NCBI GenBank assembly: GCA_964577145.1
Contig: CAZNXM010000004.1
Coordinates: forward strand, 1,747 to 65,746
Length of the DNA: 64,000 bases
Source of the DNA: an uncultured Candidatus Poseidoniales archaeon
GTDB taxonomy: Archaea; Thermoplasmatota; Poseidoniia; Poseidoniales; Poseidoniaceae
Reading direction: 5' to 3'
In this document: positions 8,312 to 31,319 of the stretch, in pieces
Layout: each line of letters starts with the position of its first letter
How positions within the stretch are numbered: the stretch's first letter is position 1
Notes under the pieces: model-generated
The model's input: only the letters and a program-made list of their open reading frames with translations
What the model was told of the DNA's origin: nothing
Database searches by the model: none
Position numbers and translations under genes: made by a program

Positions 8312-8740
8312 GTGATAATGATGGGAATGACAATGGCAGAACTAACTCAGGCGATTCAACAACATATCGACATGGAGATGGATTCAGAAGTAGCCTGTGG
8401 AATGGCAGAGCACGCTCTTGGCTTCTTTGGCTTCTACGACCGAATTATCGATAACGCTCTTGAGCCCACTGATAGGAACTTGTTTTACATGTTTCAAGAC
8501 TATGACCTTCTTACTACAGAATCAGAGGAGACCACCCTTTGGGATGGTCGAGAATGGAGGATTCACTATTGGCGCTTCAAGCCAGAACTGCGCGAGCGTG
8601 TAGAAGCATACATGTCTCGCAAGGTAAAGGAAGTCGAAATCGACCCATTTGGCGACATTTACACCGGTGGTGGCACGATTTGGACCCGAGAGGGCGACAA
8701 GCCTGTCAATCCCAATGCTTTCACCTCTGACCACTGGTGA
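8312..8740 (+). CDS. Hypothetical small cytoplasmic protein
   Basis: 142 aa ORF with no recognisable motif. Its stop overlaps the start region of the large surface-protein ORF. Confidence 0.4.
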   Translation: MIMMGMTMAELTQAIQQHIDMEMDSEVACGMAEHALGFFGFYDRIIDNALEPTDRNLFYMFQDYDLLTTESEETTLWDGREWRIHYWRFKPELRERVEAYMSRKVKEVEIDPFGDIYTGGGTIWTREGDKPVNPNAFTSDHW

Positions 8741-8793
8741 AACTGTACTTGGACCCACAAGTATTGAAATGGAGCAGCGCGAGCAATATCCAT

Positions 8794-11745
8794 ATGAAGA
8801 CGAGGAGCCTTATTCTCGCCGCGCTCTTTTTGACCTCGGTGGTTCCACTTTCCACCGCAGATGATCCAGTGGGAATTAGCATTCTCACCGATTGGGGAGA
8901 TGACCATGCTTACATAATCACAGGCGATGTGAATCTCTCTGATGTCAATGTCACACATTCACGTGATGGTTCATCTCTTGATATCGGTTTGATTTACGAT
9001 ACTACAGGAGCTGACCTTCGCCTAGAACTCAACTCCACTTTGGAATATGAGGACGTCATTACAGTCTCAGTAGGAGAATTTTCGCGAACAATAACTGTGG
9101 GATTGTGGAGCCAACCTTTGGCAGACCACGAGGTTACAACCACTACGCAATGGACGATGGACCAGCAATGGACAAATGAGTATGGTCAACAGAAATACAT
9201 CTTGACTTTCGATGGCAATGGTTGGCAAGCAAGAGAGGGGAATATCCTCGAAGCTTGGGAAATGGGTGATGGTGCTTTACAAATTACCAGCAATACTGAC
9301 GATGGTGGTATAATCCTAAATTTAATTCTTGAATCGGTTTGGAAGAACGAGACAATTGTAGATGGAATTCTTACCGGGCAGGTTTTCGATGCACGTGGTG
9401 CTGGTACTATCGGTGTCGAAAACAATGGCACAGATGGAGAGGTAACAATCGAGGGTCTAGTGAGTGATGCGTGGATTAATCGTTCTCTAATCAATGGAAT
9501 TGTCGATGAAAAATTCAGACTTGAGGCCAATGGCTCAATCGAGGTATTGAATAACGAAAGCGAAGAAGGAAATTTTTCTTTGACAGGAGTTCTCGCTGTA
9601 TTATTAGTCGAGACTCACGATATCAATGGCACTAGAGTTCTCGACCATCAAGAATTTGAGGCAACTGCAGATCTAGTAATCGAGGATAACGATACTAGAA
9701 TCGATATTTCGCTTGAAGTATTCCAGCAATTAGAGCGCTGGGAAAATGGAGTGATGGTCAATGCCTATAGTAATCTAGAGGGCCATGGCTCATTTGGATT
9801 AACCAGTTCAGATGAAAATTCAAGTGTAAATATCAATGGCACAATTTATGATTTCCACCAAGCCAGTGAAGATGGTTTGACGACAATCGACGACTTCCAT
9901 CTCGATGGAACGATTAGTGGAGATGCATCGGGAACCTTTGGAGTCGTGAGAAATATCGAAGCCGATGGACAACAAGCAAGTTGGAATGGTACAACATATG
10001 ATGTAATCGTCATTCACCAGGAAGATTGGTTCAATCTAACTGGGATTGCTGGACTACCTAATTCTGAGATTGGAGCAGGAGCGCATCACAACGAATCATG
10101 GGATTACATGGTTCCCCAAGAACACTGGGACAATCGTTCTATTCGCACCGTTTGGCAACAAACCGGCAATGACCCAAGTAGCGGCGATGAGGTTCACAAC
10201 AATTCCCCAATAGAGAAGCCACTAGAGCAACCAGATGTTGAAGAAATGCTTGGCGATGTAAATGTAGGGAGAGAGATGGGCTTTGTCCCTCTTGATGCAA
10301 AAGAAGGTGATGTATTCACTCTTGACCACCAAAACGGAATGGCTCTAACAGTAACATGTGGAATTCCAGAAGTTAAACCGATTGATGGTCACATGGTAGA
10401 TACTCTCGCTTGGACGGGAGTATATTCTTCAGGCGTAGATGGTAATGCAAGTGGTAATATCATCGTAGATGGGCCGTTATCTGGACTCAATGTTGAAATT
10501 GAAAGGATAATCATTGCACCATTTGGTGAAGACAACCAAACAGTAATTGTAACTGAGAATAAACAGATAGATCGTGTACTATCACCATCAATAATTTCAA
10601 TTCACGACAATACTCCACCAACGATAGTTAGCGCTACGCTCAGAGAGGGTGTAGTCACAGGTGAAGGTGGGCCAATAGCTCATCTTGAAGTCGTGGTTTC
10701 AGATCCCGATTTCAATGTTGAGAGCGTAACAGCTAACCTCTCTGGAATAGGCGGAGGAGTTGTGGAACTCTCAGATAAGGGGATGCAAGGAGATACAGAA
10801 ATTGGCGACGATATCTGGACCACTCAAGTTGTTGTAATGGGCTTAGAATTAGGAAATATTTCTATCATCATTTCTGCAGATGATACCTTTGAGTCGGCTG
10901 TAAACCTCAATACTACAATAGAAGTGAGAAATCAACCACCACGTCTTGCAGAAATCACAATAGTTCCTCATAAAATTGCACGCGGTGATATGCTCATTAT
11001 CAATGCAGAGGTAATTGATGGTCATGGAGTTGCAAGTGTGCAAATTGATTTACGCGATAAAGGAGGATCGCTCCAAGACCTTGAACGAATTGGTGAATTT
11101 TGGATTGGTGAAGTGGTAATTCCCGATGGAATGTCACCTGGAGACCATCTTCTAAAGGTCAGGATGGAAGATGACCTTGGTTCTTCAATTATCGTTACTA
11201 GAACTAAGTTTTCAGGCCTCCACCATGTCGAACTTTCCGAGGATGAGGATGTAAAGGTAGAGGTGCTAAACACCCCTCCACAAATCGATGTTGGAGAAAC
11301 AAGAGTGATTACTGTTGGCGATGAAGATAAGGTGTATACATTTACTGTAACCATAACCGATCACGATAATCTTGCATCTGCGAAAATAAAACTTGGAGCA
11401 TTCGCACCACCCGGCGATGAAGGCAAATGGCTCGTGTTAGAACCAAATGGCGATGATACATATTCAATCACGGTTTCAATTCGTTCAACTATCGTAATAG
11501 GAACCCACGAAGTTCTGGTTAGAGCCACTGATATCTATGGTGCCCAATCATCTGATGAATCACTAGCAGTAATTATTCAAGAAGAAGACAATTCTGTAAT
11601 CTCTGGTGATGGACCCGATACCAAATTAATTACCTATGCAGCTGTTGGAGGAATGATAATTCTTGCAATTGCTGGGGCTACGATTTACATCCGCCGCGGT
11701 AGTGATGGTGAAGGTGGCGGATTAGGCGGATTCGGTGAAGTCTGA
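8794..11745 (+). CDS. Very large secreted cell-surface protein (~980 aa) with C-terminal transmembrane anchor
   Basis: Signal peptide MKTRSLILAALFLTSVVPLSTADD (ORF opens at 8737). A long acidic, Thr/Asn/Gly-rich extracellular region. C-terminal TM LITYAAVGGMIILAIAGATIYIRRG followed by a Gly-rich tail. Confidence 0.7.
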   Translation: MKTRSLILAALFLTSVVPLSTADDPVGISILTDWGDDHAYIITGDVNLSDVNVTHSRDGSSLDIGLIYDTTGADLRLELNSTLEYEDVITVSVGEFSRTITVGLWSQPLADHEVTTTTQWTMDQQWTNEYGQQKYILTFDGNGWQAREGNILEAWEMGDGALQITSNTDDGGIILNLILESVWKNETIVDGILTGQVFDARGAGTIGVENNGTDGEVTIEGLVSDAWINRSLINGIVDEKFRLEANGSIEVLNNESEEGNFSLTGVLAVLLVETHDINGTRVLDHQEFEATADLVIEDNDTRIDISLEVFQQLERWENGVMVNAYSNLEGHGSFGLTSSDENSSVNINGTIYDFHQASEDGLTTIDDFHLDGTISGDASGTFGVVRNIEADGQQASWNGTTYDVIVIHQEDWFNLTGIAGLPNSEIGAGAHHNESWDYMVPQEHWDNRSIRTVWQQTGNDPSSGDEVHNNSPIEKPLEQPDVEEMLGDVNVGREMGFVPLDAKEGDVFTLDHQNGMALTVTCGIPEVKPIDGHMVDTLAWTGVYSSGVDGNASGNIIVDGPLSGLNVEIERIIIAPFGEDNQTVIVTENKQIDRVLSPSIISIHDNTPPTIVSATLREGVVTGEGGPIAHLEVVVSDPDFNVESVTANLSGIGGGVVELSDKGMQGDTEIGDDIWTTQVVVMGLELGNISIIISADDTFESAVNLNTTIEVRNQPPRLAEITIVPHKIARGDMLIINAEVIDGHGVASVQIDLRDKGGSLQDLERIGEFWIGEVVIPDGMSPGDHLLKVRMEDDLGSSIIVTRTKFSGLHHVELSEDEDVKVEVLNTPPQIDVGETRVITVGDEDKVYTFTVTITDHDNLASAKIKLGAFAPPGDEGKWLVLEPNGDDTYSITVSIRSTIVIGTHEVLVRATDIYGAQSSDESLAVIIQEEDNSVISGDGPDTKLITYAAVGGMIILAIAGATIYIRRGSDGEGGGLGGFGEV

Positions 11746-11817: not shown

Positions 11818-13488
11818 ATGCGGATAGGACCTATCCATATTCCGTTTACAAAAAAGGTTGATACTCCTTTCATATGGCTGAATAATCCAGATGCCATCAA
11901 AGTCGATGCAATGCCATCGAAGATTTCTTTCACTCCTGACCGGCCCTTTTCTATTGTTGGTTCCATTTTCACTATGGGATTCATTATTTTTGGACTAATA
12001 TTAGCGGGCATCCCTATAGGAATTATTGCAGCAGAAACCATTTACCCAATGCTCGATGAGGATAGTGATGAACCATGCTGGCCAGACCAAGATTCCGCGA
12101 TAATATTGTCAGACGGAATGGTATATTGTGACTTGGGGGGGTCGACTGAGGAATACACCGATTATCAGATTGCAGATGGCCATTACAGAATGACGATGTA
12201 TGGAGAAGAAGTCTACGAATACAGATGGTCAGAAGAAAATGGCACAATCACCTATGCATGGTTAGATGGAGATTACAATTACTATGAATGCTGGCAATAC
12301 ATTAGAGCCTCAGCCTTGCCAGAGAACTTTACAGGCGATGACCTCATTGTGAAATATGGCACAGAGGATGAATCTTATCCAGAATGGTGCAACGAGAGTC
12401 CGGATAATTCTAATATCGTGTATAGCGATACCAATTCAACCCCATTTGATGGTGAGTTATTGTACAATATTTATCCCAGTGACATGGCATATAGCATTGA
12501 AACAACTCAATTCATGGATGAAGGCAATATCCGTCACACATATCACGAGTTGGATTGGGACAATCAGATTTATTTTGAAGAAGTAGCTTTTCTTTCAATC
12601 TTTATGTTCGTTGGATTAGCAATAATGTTGGCCCCCCTGCTCACAAGAAAACGGATTTTAACCTTCGATACTATTGCCAACCAAGTGACTGAAGAATTCG
12701 CCAAATGGCCTAGGTTCGGCACCCACCGTGCAACAATACAGACGCCTCTGTCTGTGGACATTGTAAGAAATACTAGGGAAGTTCATCATAGTGAGAGTGG
12801 AGATGAACATTCTTCAGGAAGGACATGGACTACCTATCATGATGGAATCGACATCACTGTCGATTTAGTTGGCCAAGGTCCACAACCAGTCCTCTTCTTG
12901 GAGGGTAATGATGCAAGAAAGGAATACGAATCGATTCTTGGTCAACTATTCTTTGTATTGGGGCTCGATCTTTCTTCAGCAGAAGAGGCGATAGATAGCA
13001 CTGAAGAATTTGAAGAAGAAGCAATTTTGGGAGAACCTCGTCAAATAGAGTCGAAAGAAAACTTCCCTGGAATCATATTTATCGGAGGAGATGTGCCATA
13101 TACAGTTGGCCAAACTATTGCATATACTGCCGCTTGGATTCTAGGTATCTGGGTCATTTCAGGACTTGGTTACACCTTCCTTTCACCATTCTGTGGATTA
13201 GCAGCTTTAGTGACCATCTTACAATTCCGAGGGATAATGAAGACATTACGAGGGGAATCGATAATGGTAAAAAATGGTGAAACTATGACTTTCAGGGATA
13301 CAAAGGACCCCACTCGGTATGATGGAAAGATGGCCGAGATGATAGATGGCCTTGAACAGGCGGATTCTAAGTTTGAAGAAGCCACTACTGTGAAAATGGA
13401 TTGGATGCCATTTGAGAATCTGAAGATGGTTAGGCTTGGTCCGATTATCGGTGGAATAATCGCTCTTGTAATCTTCGTCTTATGGTGA
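11818..13488 (+). CDS. Polytopic membrane protein, function unknown
   Basis: 556 aa with several hydrophobic helices (FIIFGLILAGIPIGIIAA, IFMFVGLAIMLAPLL, AAWILGIWVISGLGYTFL, IIGGIIALVIFVLW). It lies directly downstream of the large surface protein. Confidence 0.5.
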   Translation: MRIGPIHIPFTKKVDTPFIWLNNPDAIKVDAMPSKISFTPDRPFSIVGSIFTMGFIIFGLILAGIPIGIIAAETIYPMLDEDSDEPCWPDQDSAIILSDGMVYCDLGGSTEEYTDYQIADGHYRMTMYGEEVYEYRWSEENGTITYAWLDGDYNYYECWQYIRASALPENFTGDDLIVKYGTEDESYPEWCNESPDNSNIVYSDTNSTPFDGELLYNIYPSDMAYSIETTQFMDEGNIRHTYHELDWDNQIYFEEVAFLSIFMFVGLAIMLAPLLTRKRILTFDTIANQVTEEFAKWPRFGTHRATIQTPLSVDIVRNTREVHHSESGDEHSSGRTWTTYHDGIDITVDLVGQGPQPVLFLEGNDARKEYESILGQLFFVLGLDLSSAEEAIDSTEEFEEEAILGEPRQIESKENFPGIIFIGGDVPYTVGQTIAYTAAWILGIWVISGLGYTFLSPFCGLAALVTILQFRGIMKTLRGESIMVKNGETMTFRDTKDPTRYDGKMAEMIDGLEQADSKFEEATTVKMDWMPFENLKMVRLGPIIGGIIALVIFVLW

Positions 13489-23184: not shown

Positions 23185-23973
23185 ATGCCGCTTATGTCAG
23201 ATGCTGAGGATGCACTTGTGGTTGCAAAAGACCTCGGTAAAAGGTACGGAGAATTCATTGCTTTGCATCCTTTGGATGTGAAGGTATCTTCAGGAGAATT
23301 TTTTGGCGTTTTTGGTCCAAACGGCGCTGGCAAATCGACCTTTATCAAACTTCTAACAGGGCAACTAAGACCAAGTATTGGCGGTGTAGAAGTATTGGGC
23401 ATCAATGCTGCAAGAAACCCTCAGAAATTAAAAGCCAATATTGGAATTGTGCCAGAATCAGAATCCCCTCCATCCTATCTTACCCCAACCGAATTCCTTC
23501 ATTTTGTGTGTAAATTACGTGCTGTGGAAGACCTTGAGGCTAAGGTAGAGCACTGGATGGACTGGTTTGGCCTCGATGAGAAGAAAGACACGATGTGTAA
23601 GGACCTTTCAAAGGGCCAGCGACAGAAGGTAATGCTCGCCGCAGCATTCATCCATGAACCTCGTCTATTATTCCTCGATGAACCATTCGCGAATCTCGAT
23701 CCAATCTACCAACGAAAATGCAGACAATGGCTCCTCGATCACGTAGCAAATGGTGGGACAATTTTCCTATGTTCTCATGTACTTGAAATGGCAGAAAGAA
23801 TGTGCAATAGAATGGCTATTATCAATAACGGGAAGGTTCTTGCTGCAGGAACCGTAATCGATATGAAATTGAATAGCGAAGAAACCCTCGAGGATGTATT
23901 CATCCGCTTAGTTGGACATTCGATTGAAGAAGCAGAACGCCGAAGCGATGAGGGACTAAACGAGGAGGAGTGA
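23185..23973 (+). CDS. ABC transporter ATP-binding protein
   Basis: Walker A GPNGAGKST, ABC signature LSKGQRQKV, Walker B LLFLDEPFANLD. Confidence 0.85.
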   Translation: MPLMSDAEDALVVAKDLGKRYGEFIALHPLDVKVSSGEFFGVFGPNGAGKSTFIKLLTGQLRPSIGGVEVLGINAARNPQKLKANIGIVPESESPPSYLTPTEFLHFVCKLRAVEDLEAKVEHWMDWFGLDEKKDTMCKDLSKGQRQKVMLAAAFIHEPRLLFLDEPFANLDPIYQRKCRQWLLDHVANGGTIFLCSHVLEMAERMCNRMAIINNGKVLAAGTVIDMKLNSEETLEDVFIRLVGHSIEEAERRSDEGLNEEE

Positions 23974-25673
23974 TTATGTCAATCAGCTTCTCCAGCCGTG
24001 ACTGGTCTGAGGCAGAAGCCTCGACAGTAGCGGTGACCTTCGATAGTGCAGGCGGTGGAAAACACCTCCATAATCCGCTAACGGGATGGGCTGCTTTCAG
24101 TGCTACATTCAAGGTAATGTTCATCGAAGAATATCGTGAGAATCTTGACTTTGCAAAAAAACGCCGTATCATGATGTTTCCACTCATGGTTGCATTAGTG
24201 ACGATGGTTGCGACAATTGGACTGCAATTTTTGGTAGGAGAAGGTGCTGCTCAAGACACCGAATCAATATCAAATTCCAAAGCCTTCACTTGGCAAGAGA
24301 TGCGATTTGCCCTCCATTTGCCTCTATTGATGTTCAGTCTTGGAATGGGTTCGTTCGCATTCCTTGGAAGGGAGAGAGTACTTGCACGTACCGGGACAAA
24401 GAACTACCTTCTTGCAAGTCCAGCCTTGCAACCATTAACCAACTCAACCGCACATTTCGCATATTATTGTAAGGATTTATCATATTACGTAATGCTAATT
24501 CTAACTCCAGTAATTGGTGGAATGGCAGTAGGGATTTCTCTAGAGTGGTGGACCGATGTTAGTACACCTCTTGAGTGGTCCAGTCTTCCACGCACTTGGA
24601 TTGCTATGACGGTAACTCTTGCCGAAGGATTGGCCCTATCTTTCATTGCCTCATCATTATGGCTTCTTGGAGGGTGGGTAAGTCGTATTACTCCAATAGC
24701 GATAATCGGACTTGGAACAATCGTAGGCCTTGGATATGTACCTAGACAAACTCTCTTGTGGGGTATGGCAACACAAGCACCAGGTGGTGAAATCTGGGCA
24801 ATTCCAGCAGTCGTACTTTCGCTTTGTGCAGCGTATTTTGCAGCGCAATTAGTTCGAGATGATTTTGAAGTAAAGGTCGTTGCAAAGAAAGAATTATTCA
24901 TGCCAATTTGGAACAAATTACGCTTCCTTGGAAAGGGAACAACGCGCCTTCTAGTTGCTAAGGAAGCGGTTGATTTAGTTCGTTCAGGCTCACTAAAGAA
25001 AATGACTGTGAGTTATTCAGTTCCTCTAATAGTACTCTTATTGATGGCCTGGTTGGTCGATTTTGCAGAAGCACCAATCCCAATCAATCTACTCAGTTAT
25101 GCGCCCTTCCTCGGCTTTTTCGGATTCAATTTTTACTCATGGCTTACGGCCCTTGATTCACCTGAGCACATGAATGGTCTTCCGTTATCAGTTCCACAAT
25201 TGATCAGGGCGAAAGTTGTGGTTTATTTCCTCGCAACATCATGGATTTCTATTCTCTTCGTTTGCCTCATGGCATGGAAACTCGACGAATGGGCAGTCCT
25301 TCCAATCGCACTGATAGTAATGATTGCTAACAGTATCTACATTGTTTCATTGACTGCATTCTTGATGGGACTAGCTCCCAATAAGGCGATATTTGATGCA
25401 AAAATAATGACATGGTTTTGGATTGGTACGGTCATACCTCTTCTAGCACTATTCCTTCTATCCTTCACTCAAGGTGATGTTTCATTCTATGAGAATTGGA
25501 TGAGTGCGGTACAAGACGGTGGATTGGATGCGGAAGCGGTTGAATTTACTAGCGAAAAGATGGAATCAGGATTCAAGGGTATTCTTGGCGTCAGCGTAGG
25601 ACTGGTGGCGGCTTCAATTCTATTGATGAAACTACTCGACCGCAAATGGGGAAGGGCAGAATTCAACAACTGA
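23970..25673 (+). CDS. Large polytopic membrane protein, probable ABC-2-type permease partner
   Basis: 567 aa with at least 10 hydrophobic helices. It overlaps the ABC ATPase stop by 4 nt. Confidence 0.5.
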   Translation: MIMSISFSSRDWSEAEASTVAVTFDSAGGGKHLHNPLTGWAAFSATFKVMFIEEYRENLDFAKKRRIMMFPLMVALVTMVATIGLQFLVGEGAAQDTESISNSKAFTWQEMRFALHLPLLMFSLGMGSFAFLGRERVLARTGTKNYLLASPALQPLTNSTAHFAYYCKDLSYYVMLILTPVIGGMAVGISLEWWTDVSTPLEWSSLPRTWIAMTVTLAEGLALSFIASSLWLLGGWVSRITPIAIIGLGTIVGLGYVPRQTLLWGMATQAPGGEIWAIPAVVLSLCAAYFAAQLVRDDFEVKVVAKKELFMPIWNKLRFLGKGTTRLLVAKEAVDLVRSGSLKKMTVSYSVPLIVLLLMAWLVDFAEAPIPINLLSYAPFLGFFGFNFYSWLTALDSPEHMNGLPLSVPQLIRAKVVVYFLATSWISILFVCLMAWKLDEWAVLPIALIVMIANSIYIVSLTAFLMGLAPNKAIFDAKIMTWFWIGTVIPLLALFLLSFTQGDVSFYENWMSAVQDGGLDAEAVEFTSEKMESGFKGILGVSVGLVAASILLMKLLDRKWGRAEFNN

Positions 25674-25691: not shown

Positions 25692-26237
25692 ATGGGGCTG
25701 GTAATCGCAGTTTGCGGAATGCCAGCAAGTGGCAAAGGAGAGTTTGCTTCCATACTTGCTTCCAAAGGGATACCTGTTCGCTCCATGGGTGATATGGTGA
25801 GGGCCGAAGTTGCCTCACTTGGAATCGAGGAAGGGCCAAATGTGTTTGGCGAAATAGCAACTGCTCTGCGTGCAGAGCACGGTGATGACATACTTGCAGT
25901 TCGTTTGACTTCAGCCGTTGATTCATTATTGGAGGATCATCCTATCGTACTAATCGAAGGAATGAGAGGTACTGCAGAGAAAGCAGTATTCGTTGAACAT
26001 TGGGGGTCTTCATTCATTTCAGTGGCGATAACCGCGGATACCGAAACAAGATTTCAAAGAGTAATTTCCCGCGGTCGTTCTGAAGATGGAGACAGGTCAA
26101 CTTTCCAACTTAGAGATGAGAGAGAAAATGGATGGGGTTTGGAACAAATAATTTCTGAAGCGGAATTCACATTCCAAAATAACCGAGATGTAGCCGAACT
26201 CACACTTCTTGCTTCGGATTGGCTAACATCCCTGTGA
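25692..26237 (+). CDS. P-loop nucleotide kinase-like protein (adenylate/dephospho-CoA kinase fold; resembles archaeal UPF0200 family)
   Basis: N-terminal P-loop VIAVCGMPASGKGEF and a kinase-like ~180 aa length. Confidence 0.5.
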   Translation: MGLVIAVCGMPASGKGEFASILASKGIPVRSMGDMVRAEVASLGIEEGPNVFGEIATALRAEHGDDILAVRLTSAVDSLLEDHPIVLIEGMRGTAEKAVFVEHWGSSFISVAITADTETRFQRVISRGRSEDGDRSTFQLRDERENGWGLEQIISEAEFTFQNNRDVAELTLLASDWLTSL

Positions 26238-26315: not shown

Positions 26316-27845
26316 GTGTACATGGCGAGAAAGGGAGGAGGAGGCCAGAAGCGCCAACGAGGCCAGCAACGAGCGCAATATGATGAGCTAGACAAATACC
26401 CTGTCATGCCCCCTCATGCCTTTGCGCGAATCGTTCGTGACAAGCGCTCTCTAAACATCGTATACCAAATTATTGAACCCCCCCTCAATAAGAAAGAAAT
26501 GGAGTGGCGAGATGAATTACTAGATATTTTCATCCGTTCACTAACCGCAAATATCGAGGAGATAGATGCCGACCCCATCGCCTACCTTAGAACAGCAATG
26601 GACAAGGTCATCAAAGCCTATGGTATGAAGATAAATAAGAAATCCAAGTCCAAACTATTCTATTATCTTAGAAGAGACATGGTAGGCTATGGAAAGATGG
26701 ACGTTCTGATGAACGATGCTAACGTTGAAGACGTATCGTGCGATGGAACGGGAGTACCGATTTTCGCTTATCATAGGAAATTTGAGTCTGTTGAAACTAC
26801 ATGTTCTTGGGATACTGATGAAGAACTCGAAAGTTACGTGATTAAATTGGCGCAGCGGTGTGGTAAACACATTTCAGTTGCAGACCCTCTGCTCGATGCT
26901 ACATTGATGGATGGTTCGCGAATTGTCATGAAGCTCGGCCGAGAGGTTTCTACTAGAGGTTCAGCATTTTGTATTCGACGATTCAAGGACGATCCGTTCT
27001 CACCTTGTGATATTATTGCATTCCGAACCCTTTCTTCTTTGATGGGCGCATACCTGTGGATTTCATTCCAGAATGAAGTTCCAATGCTATTCGTAGGCGG
27101 TACTGCATCAGGTAAGACTACCACGCTTAACGCAATGTGTATTTTCATACCTTGGCAGATGAAGATTGTTAGTATCGAGTCAACTCGTGAAGTAAACATT
27201 CCACAACCAAACTGGGTCCCAGGACTAACCCGGCAAGGATTCGGTGGAGAATCATCTGAGGGTGAAATCGGTGAGTTCGAACTTCTAAAGGCAGCTCTTC
27301 GTGAGCGACCTGAGTACATTATCGTGGGAGAGATTCGTGGTGCAGAAGCATATGTTCTATTCCAAGCAATGGCAACAGGTCACTGTGCTTATTCGACAGT
27401 TCACGCCGACTCAGTACCTTCTCTAGTCCACCGCCTAGAGAACAAACCGATTGATATCCCACGTGTTCTTCTTCCTGCACTGGAAGCCTGTGTGATTCAA
27501 ATTCAGACCAGAATTAATGGACGACGTGTTCGACGTTCAAAGCAAATTGTCGAAATTGTAGGTATAGATCCAAACTCAATGGAAGTCATTACGAACGAAG
27601 TTTTCCGATGGAATGTTGCAAATGATGATTTCATATTCTCTGGAAAGTCATATGTTTTGGAGAAGATTATGGTTAAGATCAATTATAGTCAAGAGGACAT
27701 GAGAAGGGAACTTAGAACCCGTAAGCGTATTCTCGAATGGATGGTGCTCAATGACATTCGCAAGGCCGATCAGGTCAGCCAAATTATCACAGAGTACTAT
27801 GTTAGGCCACACGAGATTCTCGCAAGAGTTGATGGAATGCGCTGA
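26316..27845 (+). CDS. FlaI/ArlI-like type IV filament assembly ATPase (archaeal secretion ATPase superfamily)
   Basis: Walker A VGGTASGKTTTLNAMCIF, Walker B/Asp box region, FlaI-like N-terminal domain (IVYQIIEPPL). Length 509 aa. Confidence 0.85.
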   Translation: MYMARKGGGGQKRQRGQQRAQYDELDKYPVMPPHAFARIVRDKRSLNIVYQIIEPPLNKKEMEWRDELLDIFIRSLTANIEEIDADPIAYLRTAMDKVIKAYGMKINKKSKSKLFYYLRRDMVGYGKMDVLMNDANVEDVSCDGTGVPIFAYHRKFESVETTCSWDTDEELESYVIKLAQRCGKHISVADPLLDATLMDGSRIVMKLGREVSTRGSAFCIRRFKDDPFSPCDIIAFRTLSSLMGAYLWISFQNEVPMLFVGGTASGKTTTLNAMCIFIPWQMKIVSIESTREVNIPQPNWVPGLTRQGFGGESSEGEIGEFELLKAALRERPEYIIVGEIRGAEAYVLFQAMATGHCAYSTVHADSVPSLVHRLENKPIDIPRVLLPALEACVIQIQTRINGRRVRRSKQIVEIVGIDPNSMEVITNEVFRWNVANDDFIFSGKSYVLEKIMVKINYSQEDMRRELRTRKRILEWMVLNDIRKADQVSQIITEYYVRPHEILARVDGMR

Positions 27846-27884: not shown

Positions 27885-28904
27885 ATGGAGTTAACCGCTT
27901 GGCAGAAAATTTGTCACCGCTTATTAGGTGGCCTTTTCAAGAAGCGAGCTCGTGAAGACACAGAACTTGGTGACAACCTAGTAAAGGGGAATATGCCAAT
28001 AATGCCAGAGGTATTTTTGGCTCAAAATTTCATGGTCACTATTCTAGTACTGATTTTTTGTATCCTAATCAATTTAGCATTCTTTTTCCCCGTTATCGGA
28101 TTCATAGATTATTATGAGTCATTACCTGACGAATCCACGGCAGAAGCCTGTTTCGTTTGGGAATATTGGAATGAGGACTTAGTTGATACCACATTACCTG
28201 CAAATGGATGTCCATACTTTGCCTACCTTGAATTTCCTGATTGGGTAGAAACACTGATTCCGATAATTTTCGGTCCGGTTATTCCATATTTTGTTTTCAA
28301 ATATTTGAAGAAAGGGGCTTCAAGGTCAGCACATGCAAGAGGGGTAGCTCTTGAGAAATACTTGCCTTATGCAGCATCATATACTGCAGCGATGGCTGCT
28401 GCAAATGCAACCCCGCACAAGATTTTCAGGTCACTAGCAATGAATGGAGATATCTATGGCGAGATTGCTTATGATTCAGCTATGATTTATCGCGACGTGA
28501 GCCTACTAGGATTTGATTTGCTTACTGCGATGAAAATGTCGGTTGACCGTGCAGCATCCCCTTGGATGACAGAATTCTTCCAGGGTATGGTTGGAACGCT
28601 AACAGCCGGAGGCTCGCTAAAGTTGTATTTCCTAAATCGTGCTGAGCACTATATGCGTGAGAACCGAACCAGATTGCATGAATTCTTAGAATCTTTAGCA
28701 ATGTTGGCTGAATCTTATGTTGTGGTTGCAGTTGCAATGCCTCTTTTCCTAATTGTCATGCTCGTGATTATGTTCTGGGTTAGCGGTGCTGGAGCACAAA
28801 TGAGTGAGGGTACATTGTATCTGGTTGTGATGTTGGTATTACCATTAATCCACGTGATGTTTGCATTCTTAGTATGGTCGTCCAGTGAAGAACAAAAAAT
28901 GTGA
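27885..28904 (+). CDS. FlaJ/ArlJ-like (TadB/C, T2SSF-domain) membrane platform protein, N-terminal half
   Basis: One T2SSF-like cytoplasmic domain (LPYAASYTAAMAAANATP...LLGFDLLTAMKMSVDRAASPW...LKLYFLNRAEHYMRE) flanked by TM helices. Confidence 0.65.
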   Translation: MELTAWQKICHRLLGGLFKKRAREDTELGDNLVKGNMPIMPEVFLAQNFMVTILVLIFCILINLAFFFPVIGFIDYYESLPDESTAEACFVWEYWNEDLVDTTLPANGCPYFAYLEFPDWVETLIPIIFGPVIPYFVFKYLKKGASRSAHARGVALEKYLPYAASYTAAMAAANATPHKIFRSLAMNGDIYGEIAYDSAMIYRDVSLLGFDLLTAMKMSVDRAASPWMTEFFQGMVGTLTAGGSLKLYFLNRAEHYMRENRTRLHEFLESLAMLAESYVVVAVAMPLFLIVMLVIMFWVSGAGAQMSEGTLYLVVMLVLPLIHVMFAFLVWSSSEEQKM

Positions 28905-28916
28905 GGAGGTGAGGAT

Positions 28917-30434
28917 ATGGCGCGCAAGAAGAAGAACAAAATCATCGTCGATCTCGATCTTCCAAAGGATGATTCAACAATGACAAAACTCTATGCGATT
29001 TTGATGGTTACAGGCTTCATCGGCTTGGGTTGTTTTGGATTTTGGCTAACTAATTCTCACTTTACAACTTCACCAAATGGTCAACCATTATTCGTTAATC
29101 TAGCCTGTGGTTTTGATTCAACTGTAGAACTAACTCCGACATTAAATGAAACCTGCCCCATGTTGGAGGATACTCCAACTCCAATTATCTATGAAACTGA
29201 AGAGCCATGGCTTGAGTTTAAAGAGCAGGGTCAGTATTTCGATGTACCTGGACGTAATATTTCTGAATTAAATGGCGCCCCTCCTCCAGTCCAACCATTT
29301 ACGGGCACATGCAATATCGATTCATCTCTACCGGCTGATTATTCATTTAGAATCTACCACACCGATGGCCAAATAGTCGCAAGGCATGATGGTAATAGCC
29401 ACGATGAGAATGACAAGTGTTACCTCCATGTAGAGAATATGGAAGTGGCGAATATGTATTCAGTTGTAATTGTTTCAAATGAAGAAATTAATTCTGCAAC
29501 ATATCGCTTTGAGATGGATTACTTTGATGGCACTCCGGAATATATCAATAACAAATCACTTTGGATTGGTCCAGAAGTAAATCTGGGTGGAATGAGTTTG
29601 AGGCCTACTATTTTCCTCAACTTCTTTGGTTTTGGATTCTTCATGTGTTTCTGGCCGGCTTCTTTCTATTGGGACCGTGTAAAAACAAGAATTAATGATA
29701 TGGAAGAGAAATTCCCTGATTTCTTACGAGATCTTGCAGAGTATTGGAAGGGGGGTTTGTCAATGACTGTAGCGGTTCAAACGTTGGCGAAATCTGAATA
29801 CGGTGCCTTGAACCATGAAGTAAAGAAAATGAGTGACCAATTAAGTTGGGGTGTTGCATTTTCCGATGTCATTCACATGTTTGCAGAACGTGTCGGTACT
29901 CCTCTTGTCAGGCGTGCAATCTCTTTGATTTCTGAGGCTAACCGTGCTGGAGGAAAGATTTCTGATATTCTTGTTACTGCAGCAAATGATAGCCGTGAAA
30001 TTAAGTTCCTTGAGGGCGAACGAGTACGCTCTATTTCATCATACATTTCAGTTATCTGGACTTCATATGGTGTATTCTTAGGAGTTATTGTCGTTCTTGC
30101 TAAGGTTTTCATTCCTGCGATTGCGGGTTCAAATTCTGAACCTAGTGATGAAGGAGATGGTGGCGGTCAAGCTATTGGAAACATGGTTATCAGAAATATC
30201 GAGCCTCTGTTTTTCCTGACGATTTTCTATTATGGTGTTACGATGCAAGCATTGGGTAATGGAAATATGGCTGGACTGATGGCTACTGGAAGATTTAGCA
30301 GTGGAATGAAGCATGCTGGGCTGATGATTCTTCTTTCCTTACTATGTTTCAATTTCATCGTTTACACCCCCGACCTCATAGGAATTACAACTTTGCCAGG
30401 CTTCAATGTCTCAGCTGGTGTTTTCAGACCATGA
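28917..30434 (+). CDS. FlaJ/ArlJ-like membrane platform protein, C-terminal half with ~200 aa extracytoplasmic insertion
   Basis: Preceded by RBS GGAGGTGAGGAT. N-terminal TM, then a Cys-containing hydrophilic insert, then a T2SSF-like domain (LRDLAEYWKGGLSMTVAVQTLAKSEYGALNHEVKKM...LISEANRAGGKISDIL) and C-terminal TM helices. Confidence 0.65.
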   Translation: MARKKKNKIIVDLDLPKDDSTMTKLYAILMVTGFIGLGCFGFWLTNSHFTTSPNGQPLFVNLACGFDSTVELTPTLNETCPMLEDTPTPIIYETEEPWLEFKEQGQYFDVPGRNISELNGAPPPVQPFTGTCNIDSSLPADYSFRIYHTDGQIVARHDGNSHDENDKCYLHVENMEVANMYSVVIVSNEEINSATYRFEMDYFDGTPEYINNKSLWIGPEVNLGGMSLRPTIFLNFFGFGFFMCFWPASFYWDRVKTRINDMEEKFPDFLRDLAEYWKGGLSMTVAVQTLAKSEYGALNHEVKKMSDQLSWGVAFSDVIHMFAERVGTPLVRRAISLISEANRAGGKISDILVTAANDSREIKFLEGERVRSISSYISVIWTSYGVFLGVIVVLAKVFIPAIAGSNSEPSDEGDGGGQAIGNMVIRNIEPLFFLTIFYYGVTMQALGNGNMAGLMATGRFSSGMKHAGLMILLSLLCFNFIVYTPDLIGITTLPGFNVSAGVFRP

Positions 30435-30447
30435 GGTGGCAGAGTTG

Positions 30448-30888
30448 TACGATGACGACTCAGGACAGATTCACATCCTTGAGATGTTGACATTATTCTG
30501 GCTCTTTTTCATGTCAGCAACTTTTCTAATTCAAATCCAGGTGCCAGATTCTCCATCACAGTCTATTGATGCAAGTATGGAGTTCGCAGGACAAGATGCC
30601 ATCCGATATGGCCTTGGTATTGACTCTCAGGGAGGCGAATATGACTCTAGACTTGCTGAATTACTTTCCAGTGGTAACGAGGACGCAGCATGCGAACTAA
30701 TCCAAGGAGCGATAACAAGTGGTTACGAAGGAAATTGTTGGCTAGCCCGTGATTCAGGAACTAGTCACCCTGCAGGAGAAGTAGGGACTCCTGCTGGCCG
30801 TACAATCACTACACATTCACTAGTTGCAGTCGATGACCATCTGTGGACGGTCTCACTTGATGTGTGGACTCGAGGAGGTGGCGAGTGA
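30448..30888 (+). CDS. Small pilin-like protein with class-III-like signal peptide (acidic leader + GQ + hydrophobic helix)
   Basis: ...YDDDSGQIHILEMLTLFWLFFMSATFLIQ. RBS-like gaggtgg at 30436-30442. The ORF opens at 30406 overlapping the upstream gene; a GTG/TTG start is likely, so coordinates are approximate. Confidence 0.35.
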   Translation, partial: YDDDSGQIHILEMLTLFWLFFMSATFLIQIQVPDSPSQSIDASMEFAGQDAIRYGLGIDSQGGEYDSRLAELLSSGNEDAACELIQGAITSGYEGNCWLARDSGTSHPAGEVGTPAGRTITTHSLVAVDDHLWTVSLDVWTRGGGE

Positions 30889-31319
30889 TGCTATCTGAAA
30901 GGGATGAAGAGGGTCAAATGCTCTTGGCAACAGGCATAGTACTGATGATGTCACTTCTTTCGATGGCCATTTTTGGAGTAAAGATGGCAGGAATTGCAAT
31001 GCCACACGACCCTGCGGGTGATACTACAATCACCGCTTCAGGAGAAGTGGTGGAATCATTGCCTGCATTGACTTACGATAGAGCCCAAATCTGGTATGAT
31101 GGTGGCTTATCTGAGTTAGAGAGTGTAGAGAAAGCGATGGCCTCGTTACACGACGACATCTTACACCATGGTGAGATTAGAGGAGTAGAACTCAAATTAC
31201 TCGACATTACAGTAAGTGAGTTGGACGGTATTATCACTGTAAATTGTGAATTGGGGGCTGCTGATAGAAATGCAATGCTTGCAAATCCAATCGAGTTTAC
31301 TATTGATCTCGATGTTTAA
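30888..31319 (+). CDS. Small pilin-like / FlaF-FlaG-like protein with class-III-like signal peptide
   Basis: MLSERDEEGQMLLATGIVLMMSLLSMAIFG, then a ~110 aa soluble domain. Its start ATG overlaps the upstream stop (TGATG), and an RBS gaggaggtg lies 8 nt upstream. Confidence 0.45.
   Translation: MLSERDEEGQMLLATGIVLMMSLLSMAIFGVKMAGIAMPHDPAGDTTITASGEVVESLPALTYDRAQIWYDGGLSELESVEKAMASLHDDILHHGEIRGVELKLLDITVSELDGIITVNCELGAADRNAMLANPIEFTIDLDV

Follow-up and report, generated by a model that had tools for sequence, protein, structure and literature searches.

Two adjacent genes in a 64,000-nucleotide stretch of DNA from an uncultured Candidatus Poseidoniales archaeon (contig CAZNXM010000004.1; the whole stretch is called the window below) encode the two halves of a FlaJ/TadC-type polytopic platform protein, with one cytoplasmic T2SSF domain in each. 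The split is genuine, ancient and fixed, and both halves carry outer parts that are specific to the lineage. As a whole, the data are best explained by a non-archaellar type IV pilus-like machine with a two-half platform and lineage-specific, enlarged outer tips, a reading in which we place considerable, though not complete, confidence.

Both open reading frames (ORFs) lie on the forward strand and start with ATG. The first, ORF1 (positions 27885-28904), encodes 339 amino acids (aa) arranged as a transmembrane (TM) hairpin, a cytoplasmic T2SSF domain and two further TM helices; ORF2 (28917-30434, 505 aa) runs from a conserved basic N-terminus on the inside through TM1, an outer domain, TM2, a cytoplasmic T2SSF domain and three TM helices to a C-terminus on the outside. 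Pfam finds T2SSF (PF00482) once in each protein, at residues 166-292 of ORF1 with 45.5 bits and at residues 269-394 of ORF2 with 46.9 bits, the gathering score being 25.2, and the NCBIfam ArlJ/FlaJ models assign ORF1 to the N-half (model positions 66-239 of 555) and ORF2 to the C-half (225-449 of 465). These matches bear out the original prediction, made from the letters of the DNA alone, that each domain sits in a gene of its own. Being above the Pfam cut-off, polytopic and adjacent to a T2SSE-type ATPase gene, both ORFs belong to the T2SSF platform superfamily (PilC/GspF/FlaJ/TadC), and as neighbouring single-T2SSF genes, one matching the N-half and the other the C-half of two-domain platforms, they form a platform of the fission type. 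No similarity between ORF1 and ORF2 was detectable with BLASTP, as is expected of an ancient internal duplication, and sequence searches of the PDB with either protein gave no match. The AlphaFold2 (AF2) model of ORF2 has a mean predicted local distance difference test score (pLDDT) of 73.6, with helices at residues 20-46, 236-264, 348-405, 430-456 and 460-482.

The junction of the genes (28902-28916, forward strand) can be read directly from the sequence: the ORF1 stop codon TGA occupies positions 28902-28904 and is followed by exactly 12 nucleotides (nt), the Shine-Dalgarno-like GGAGGTGAGGAT, and then by the ATG of ORF2. In the window, the two ORFs share one frame, so they are separated by the stop codon and not by a frameshift. 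The original prediction had placed a strong ribosome-binding site 12 nt after the stop; a Shine-Dalgarno-like element is indeed present, but it is the 12-nt spacer itself. As a separate observation, the first 21 residues of ORF2 (28917-28979; MARKKKxKIxVxLDLPKDD) have a column identity of 0.77 against 0.52 in TM1. Such conservation goes beyond that expected for a mere signal-anchor leader, and this cytoplasmic N-terminus may therefore be a docking peptide for ORF1 or for the ATPase.

A platform encoded by two genes is of an already known kind. In the Tad (TadB/TadC) and the Epd-like archaeal systems, the platform is spread over two genes, each with a single T2SSF domain, which has been explained by fission of one gene, TadC being similar to the N-half and TadB to the C-half (Denise et al., PMC6668835); two tadC-like genes are found in many Clade 1 and Clade 2 euryarchaeal type IV pilus (T4P) loci and in several crenarchaeal ones (Makarova et al., PMC4858521); and EpdJ and EpdK are each essential for piliation in M. 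maripaludis (PMC4371748). The premise of the original prediction, that FlaJ/TadC proteins normally form a single chain, overlooks all of these.

Which machine the platform serves

The two halves belong to a five-gene cassette (ATPase, ORF1, ORF2 and two small prepilin-like genes, PA and PB) that is conserved throughout the Poseidoniaceae (marine group IIa, MGIIa, archaea) and tightly packed in all loci examined. For comparison across species, a 20-sequence alignment was scanned against the GTDB species representatives and gave 80 loci. The first gene (26316-27845, forward strand; Pfam T2SSE, 90.6 bits) encodes a FlaI/PilB-type secretion ATPase, ends 39 nt upstream of ORF1 and comes first in every locus long enough to contain it. 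PA (30406-30888, forward strand) is the longest ORF from 30406; started instead at the alternative GTG at 30436, just past the ORF2 stop, it has a 10-aa leader resembling that of its orthologues, and its signal reads ...DDDSG/QIHILEMLTLFWLFFMSATFL. PB (30888-31319, forward strand; 143 aa) has a start that overlaps the PA stop and the signal MLSERDEEG/QMLLATGIVLMMSLLSMAIFG. Both proteins show the features of a class III signal, namely a short charged leader, Gly or Ala at position -1 and a hydrophobic helix of about 20 residues. In PA, the [G/A]Q with a hydrophobic helix of 20 residues behind it occurs at 78 of 79 loci (one a doubtful S-Q match), and the [G/A]Q-MLL motif of PB is present in 78/78.

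The machine is most likely a non-archaellar T4P-like system, used in adhesion or uptake and separate from the archaellum operon (FlaAGHIJ) reported for MGIIa, because archaellin and FlaH are missing, the ArlI and ArlJ scores fall below their cut-offs, the ATPase is closest to GspE, and PA and PB carry the [G/A]Q motif. Neither the genes called in loci L001-L006 nor the Pfam scans of the window neighbours included an archaellin (PF01917) or a FlaH/KaiC-like, FlaF or FlaG protein, and no KaiC-, FlaH- or TadZ-like gene was found in the locus. The best NCBIfam matches of the cassette are the ArlI and ArlJ models, but the ATPase reaches 399 bits against an ArlI cut-off of 550, and ORF1 and ORF2 reach 51.3 and 53.4 bits against cut-offs of 400-570 for the ArlJ equivalogs NF004703-5. 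Among solved structures, the ATPase is nearest to A. fulgidus GspE (2OAP, 400 bits), followed by S. acidocaldarius FlaI (264) and CpaF (120); its match to the PilB3_C family stays below threshold (20.4 bits, cut-off 27), as does that to the TadA model (130 bits, cut-off 373). The cassette thus has neither the TadA/CpaF-like ATPase nor the TadZ/FlaH-like second ATPase that characterize the Epd/Tad clade, nor an ArlH or ArlF/G gene alongside as in an archaellum. MGIIa genomes assembled from metagenomes (MAGs) have been described as holding flaB/H/I/J loci plus "additional" flaJ, flaI and tadC genes (Orellana et al., PMC6864105), and the window cassette fits the latter.

Several points weigh against this assignment. 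PA and PB have no significant Pfam pilin match, PB showing only weak matches to the archaeal families DUF7333 and DUF7261; transcription of the cassette as one unit is suggested by gene spacing only; and the separate archaellum operon of this genome is taken from the literature. A promoter and terminator scan performed at chance level, its models being bacterial-type and not applicable to archaea.

Like TadB/TadC (CpaG/CpaH), the window has adjacent one-T2SSF genes after an ATPase gene; the Tad proteins are believed to pair into the counterpart of a single PilC-type protein, three such heterodimers serving one ATPase hexamer (PMC6668835, PMC12019362). The window differs in having an ATPase much closer to archaeal GspE and FlaI than to CpaF, and no Tad-type platform family is among the NCBIfam matches of ORF1 and ORF2. 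In Tad loci, tadB precedes tadC. The window, on the other hand, has the N-half-like gene first, and tadB is C-half-like (PMC6668835); PMC6668835 and PMC12019362, as consulted, mention no large outer domain on TadB or TadC. The EpdJ/EpdK pair of M. maripaludis, with its ATPase EpdL, is similar in being an archaeal T4P system with two single-domain platform paralogues (PMC4371748), and Epd pilins are cut before Gln (KGQV, KGQI and RAQI; PMC4371748, Table 1), like the [G/A]Q of PA and PB. In Epd loci, however, the platform genes precede the ATPase gene and a FlaH-like second ATPase follows (PMC6668835), whereas the window has the ATPase first and no FlaH-like gene; no outer jelly-roll is reported for EpdJ/EpdK, and the Epd system is set apart from the window by its description only. 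The euryarchaeal Clade 2 T4P systems (H. volcanii PilB3/PilC3, A. fulgidus GspE) share the minimal module of an ATPase and TadC-like proteins with a few pilins, and many of their loci are reported to have two tadC-like genes (PMC4858521); the likeness, seen in the nearness of the window ATPase to A. fulgidus GspE and its weak PilB3_C match, is one of scores. Among the more distant relatives of the platform treated below, those at loci L089 and L091 have PilB3_N- or PilB3_C-type ATPases, and these relatives, with that at L090, are without the Cys-containing outer parts that the Poseidoniaceae carry on both halves. Finally, ArlJ/FlaJ shares the T2SSF family and, when ORF1 and ORF2 are joined, the plan of nine TM helices and two cytoplasmic domains, but ArlJ is a single chain whose gene lies with those of archaellins and ArlH/F/G, while the window protein is split, scores about 50 bits with the ArlJ models and has no archaellum partners in its locus.

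Two other machines have to be considered. In place of a long adhesive pilus, the product of the cassette could be short and resemble a pseudopilus or bindosome, or could serve in DNA uptake; the jelly-roll domain of ORF2 (see below) would then bind a substrate or cargo and not the filament. This is possible, though in our view less probable: the cassette has two small pilin-like genes and no adhesin, the fold matches of the jelly-roll include carbohydrate-binding modules, lectins and collagen-binding domains, and a pair of ABC-transporter genes is a conserved upstream neighbour, but the fold matches are generic, and a kinase-like gene stands between the cassette and the ABC genes, which may be unrelated. 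In M. maripaludis, epdJ and epdK are reportedly mentioned in a transposon screen aimed at genes of transformation.

That ORF1 and ORF2 are instead the archaellum platform FlaJ/ArlJ of marine group II (MGII), with archaellins and FlaH encoded elsewhere and the cassette as motor core of an organelle for swimming, we consider unlikely. In addition to the ArlI and ArlJ models being the best NCBIfam matches, several homologues carry the name "flagellar protein FlaJ" in JGI, and ATPase/TadC modules can use pilins encoded in trans (PMC4858521). Against these stand the large distance of the scores from the equivalog cut-offs, the lack of archaellin, FlaH, FlaF and FlaG genes in any locus examined, the ATPase that is nearer to A. 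fulgidus GspE than to S. acidocaldarius FlaI, and the cassette's own two prepilin-like genes; moreover, the archaellum operon of MGII, with co-localized FlaHIJ and PF01917 flagellins, is a different one (FlaAGHIJ; Tully et al., PMC6336850). The FlaJ label used in the original prediction is for the same reasons doubtful, and the pilus-like reading has a practical consequence. MGII archaea, uncultured so far, rank among the most abundant archaea of the plankton, and their "flagellar" genes are used in ecological arguments on motility versus particle attachment; if the cassette genes annotated as FlaJ and FlaI belong to a separate, universally conserved pilus-like system, the reading of flaJ counts in metagenomes is affected.

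Outer parts of the two halves

A Cys-containing hydrophilic insert after the first TM helix of ORF2 had been noticed in the original prediction and is there at residues 46-228 (29052-29600, forward strand), between TM1 and TM2; it consists of a Cys-containing leader and a jelly-roll β-sandwich. Hydropathy puts the flanking hydrophobic helices at about residues 22-45 and 229-255. The insert is acidic, with 28 Asp and Glu against 7 Lys and Arg, and the conserved N-terminus of ORF2 is basic, with 6 Lys and Arg in 21 residues. Across 116 sequences, the column identity is 0.41 in the insert versus 0.86 in the T2SSF domain; nevertheless, the four Cys of the insert (C64, C80, C132 and C168) are each kept in at least 97% of the sequences, and two N-x-S/T sequons, N77 and N212, are present in 116 and 115 of them. 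Structure prediction, proposed earlier as a check, was run on the insert alone and gave an AF2 β-sandwich with a mean pLDDT of 87.1, also present in the full ORF2 model. The fold matches are mostly secreted, surface or capsid proteins; with the full ORF2 model, Foldseek matched only jelly-roll proteins and no solved platform protein, and no Pfam family matches the insert.

The two flanking TM helices, the positive-inside distribution of charge, the conserved Cys and sequons, and the β-sandwich fold together place the insert outside the cytoplasm, as originally predicted, and it is not part of an ordinary N-terminal T2SSF region. The contrary view, a cytoplasmic and elaborated N-terminal extension of T2SSF, has its sole support in the position upstream of that domain; with an all-β fold in place of a helical bundle, a strongly acidic composition, four near-invariant Cys, two conserved sequons and flanking helices after a basic N-terminus, we regard it as very improbable. 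It also disagrees with the one fused relative found (P0355, see below), in which the homologous position is a loop of about 10 residues between two TM helices; WNLGGG of P0355 aligns with the NLGG that ends the insert of ORF2. The four conserved Cys could form two disulfides, and N-glycosylation of the insert is probable.

The N-terminal half has a smaller counterpart. Residues 72-119 of ORF1 (28098-28241, forward strand) form an acidic loop that caps the N-terminal TM hairpin on the extracytoplasmic side; its 48 residues include 11 Asp and Glu and no Lys or Arg, and all 120 aligned sequences keep its two Cys, C89 and C109. The N-half homologues at L090 and L091 are 36-46 residues shorter than ORF1 and without Cys at the loop position. 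On the C-half, the sequence of the insert is present only in the closest clusters among the nearest relatives, and the loop at its position is a short acidic stretch in P0248 and longer in P0242 and P0244. Set against the distant relatives, the ORF1 loop and the ORF2 insert indicate that this lineage has extended the two repeats at corresponding outer positions. The outer jelly-roll and the Cys loop of ORF1 are thus lineage-specific, and apparently undescribed, our literature search having found no description of an outer jelly-roll or of the paired Cys loop.

Some ORF2 orthologues have a further addition at the other end. Some of those from deep-water Poseidoniales (P0098, P0108 and P0115; about 620 aa) are extended at the C-terminus by about 100 residues beyond the last TM helix, an addition seen also in L006 (10001-11875), L069 and L070; no Pfam family matches it, and it should likewise be outside the cell. 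The more distant C-half P0254 has a C-terminal region with a sub-threshold match to the Ig-like family Big_13.

Age of the split and distant relatives

Fifteen independent metagenome contigs (ENA/JGI), from different samples and assemblers, encode an identical ORF2 protein, and a 339-aa T2SSF gene lies directly upstream of it in all four contig placements listed. At the species level, a stop and short spacer separate the genes in 78/78 loci holding both, the spacer contains a Shine-Dalgarno-like motif (GGAGG or GGTGA) in 70 of them, and the frame of ORF2 relative to ORF1 is 0 in 23 loci, 1 in 24 and 2 in 31. Such diversity of frames is incompatible with a sequencing artefact common to the loci, with a recent pseudogene and with read-through of the stop codon; recoding of the in-frame TGA had been a candidate explanation for the window and was ruled out by the other frames of ORF2 in other species. 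Lengths are well kept, nearly all of the 504 matches of ORF1 being exactly 339 aa, and most of the 1052 matches of ORF2 about 500-530 aa with some near 620 aa, and the column identity of 0.83-0.86 in the T2SSF parts shows both halves to be under strong constraint. All of the 80 scanned loci come from Poseidoniaceae, Poseidoniales or unclassified euryarchaeal MAGs, confining the taxonomic spread to the order, and the named homologues are Poseidoniaceae or Poseidoniales proteins called "type II secretion system F family protein" or "flagellar protein FlaJ".

The split is therefore real, as the original prediction had held in preferring it to a frameshift, and the same split, which it had suggested looking for, is general in the related genomes. 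Although a single base error could produce the situation in the window, with both ORFs in one frame and a TGA and 12 nt between them, an assembly or sequencing error, or a recent pseudogenizing mutation, in a normal single FlaJ gene is practically impossible given the identical protein on independent contigs, the stop and spacer kept with all three relative frames, the fixed length of ORF1 and the constraint on both halves.

A search for relatives among 1.84 billion cluster representatives (50% identity) listed the 150 nearest relatives of ORF2, and 149 of these were screened with ORF1 (phmmer) and with an N-half profile. Both halves occurred in one protein in a single case, P0355 (1/149), so that the original prediction overstated the rarity of the split; about 14 other relatives of ORF2 had one T2SSF domain each in Pfam and NCBIfam scans. 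At L090 and L091, the order is ATPase, N-half (293 or 303 aa; 31% and 39% identical to ORF1) and C-half. P0355 is encoded at locus L089, downstream of a PilB3_N-type ATPase and a Pilin_N protein; its residues 98-301 align to ORF1 131-336 and its residues 367-615 to ORF2 222-483, both with 37% identity, and its nine TM helices are arranged in a 2+2+2+3 pattern. From the number of TM helices and the basic residues of the P0355 linker, we infer that the break between ORF1 and ORF2 fell in the cytoplasmic linker that joins TM helices four and five. The same pattern identifies TM1 and TM2 of ORF2 as an ancestral TM hairpin, and an earlier idea, that the split required ORF2 to gain an extra signal-anchor helix, was dropped for this reason.

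Many C-half relatives of about 600 aa (P0263, P0265, P0274, P0288 and similar ones; L090 2579-4429) have no second T2SSF domain. Ahead of the single one they carry some nine extra TM helices, and in L090 such a protein is paired with the separate 293-aa N-half gene. Lineage-specific elaboration seems to concentrate in the stretch preceding the T2SSF domain of the C-half.

Proposed mechanism and neighbouring genes

By analogy with the AlphaFold3 model of the CpaG-CpaH heterodimer and trimer (PMC12019362) and with the genetics of EpdJ/EpdK, ORF1 and ORF2 would form a heterodimer equivalent to one two-domain PilC/FlaJ; their strict co-occurrence in all 78 loci is consistent with such a pair but goes no further. 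Probably three heterodimers, with six T2SSF bundles, would dock on the hexameric ATPase and pass PA and PB, or pilins encoded in trans, from the membrane into the filament. The Shine-Dalgarno-like spacer would restart translation, with the consequence that both halves are made in similar amounts.

More speculatively, the outer domains may surround the exit of the filament, as a collar or as an adaptor to the filament base or cell envelope, and stand in for accessory proteins which the minimal locus lacks. The original prediction had suggested that the periplasmic-side domain could touch the filament or the S-layer. In its most specific form, the proposal is that the ORF2 jelly-roll and the ORF1 Cys loop, in three copies each, make a platform-built extracellular ring that guides or clamps the nascent filament or ties the machine to the envelope, replacing separate ArlF/G-like or S-layer-associated proteins; we offer it tentatively and do not think it likely as it stands. 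If true, a platform protein would extend through the membrane and work on the filament from outside. None of the findings overturns current views, but a platform that is naturally split, lies outside the Epd/Tad clade and has folded outer domains on each half could help in testing the contact between platform and filament.

The genes of the cassette differ in how fast they diverge. The ATPase is exceptionally conserved, with 85-96% identity across the species-level loci (L009-L088), while over the same species the platform halves are 55-81% identical (ORF2 55-75%) and the pilin-like genes mostly 46-76%. Directly upstream of the cassette in every Poseidoniales locus inspected are three genes, in the window an ABC ATPase (23185-23973), a 567-aa polytopic membrane protein with no Pfam match (23970-25673) and an AAA_18/adenylate-kinase-like protein of 181 aa (25692-26237); the remaining neighbours are housekeeping genes. 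Farther away, two large adjacent ORFs without significant Pfam match (8737-11745, 1002 aa, and 11818-13488, 556 aa) may encode lineage-specific surface proteins. Lastly, a 5.7-kb contig labelled as a "Salipiger bermudensis" MAG (L047, CAXQWT010000002.1) contains the full Poseidoniaceae cassette, with an ORF2 61% identical to that of the window, and probably comes from an archaeon, having been mis-binned into a bacterial MAG.

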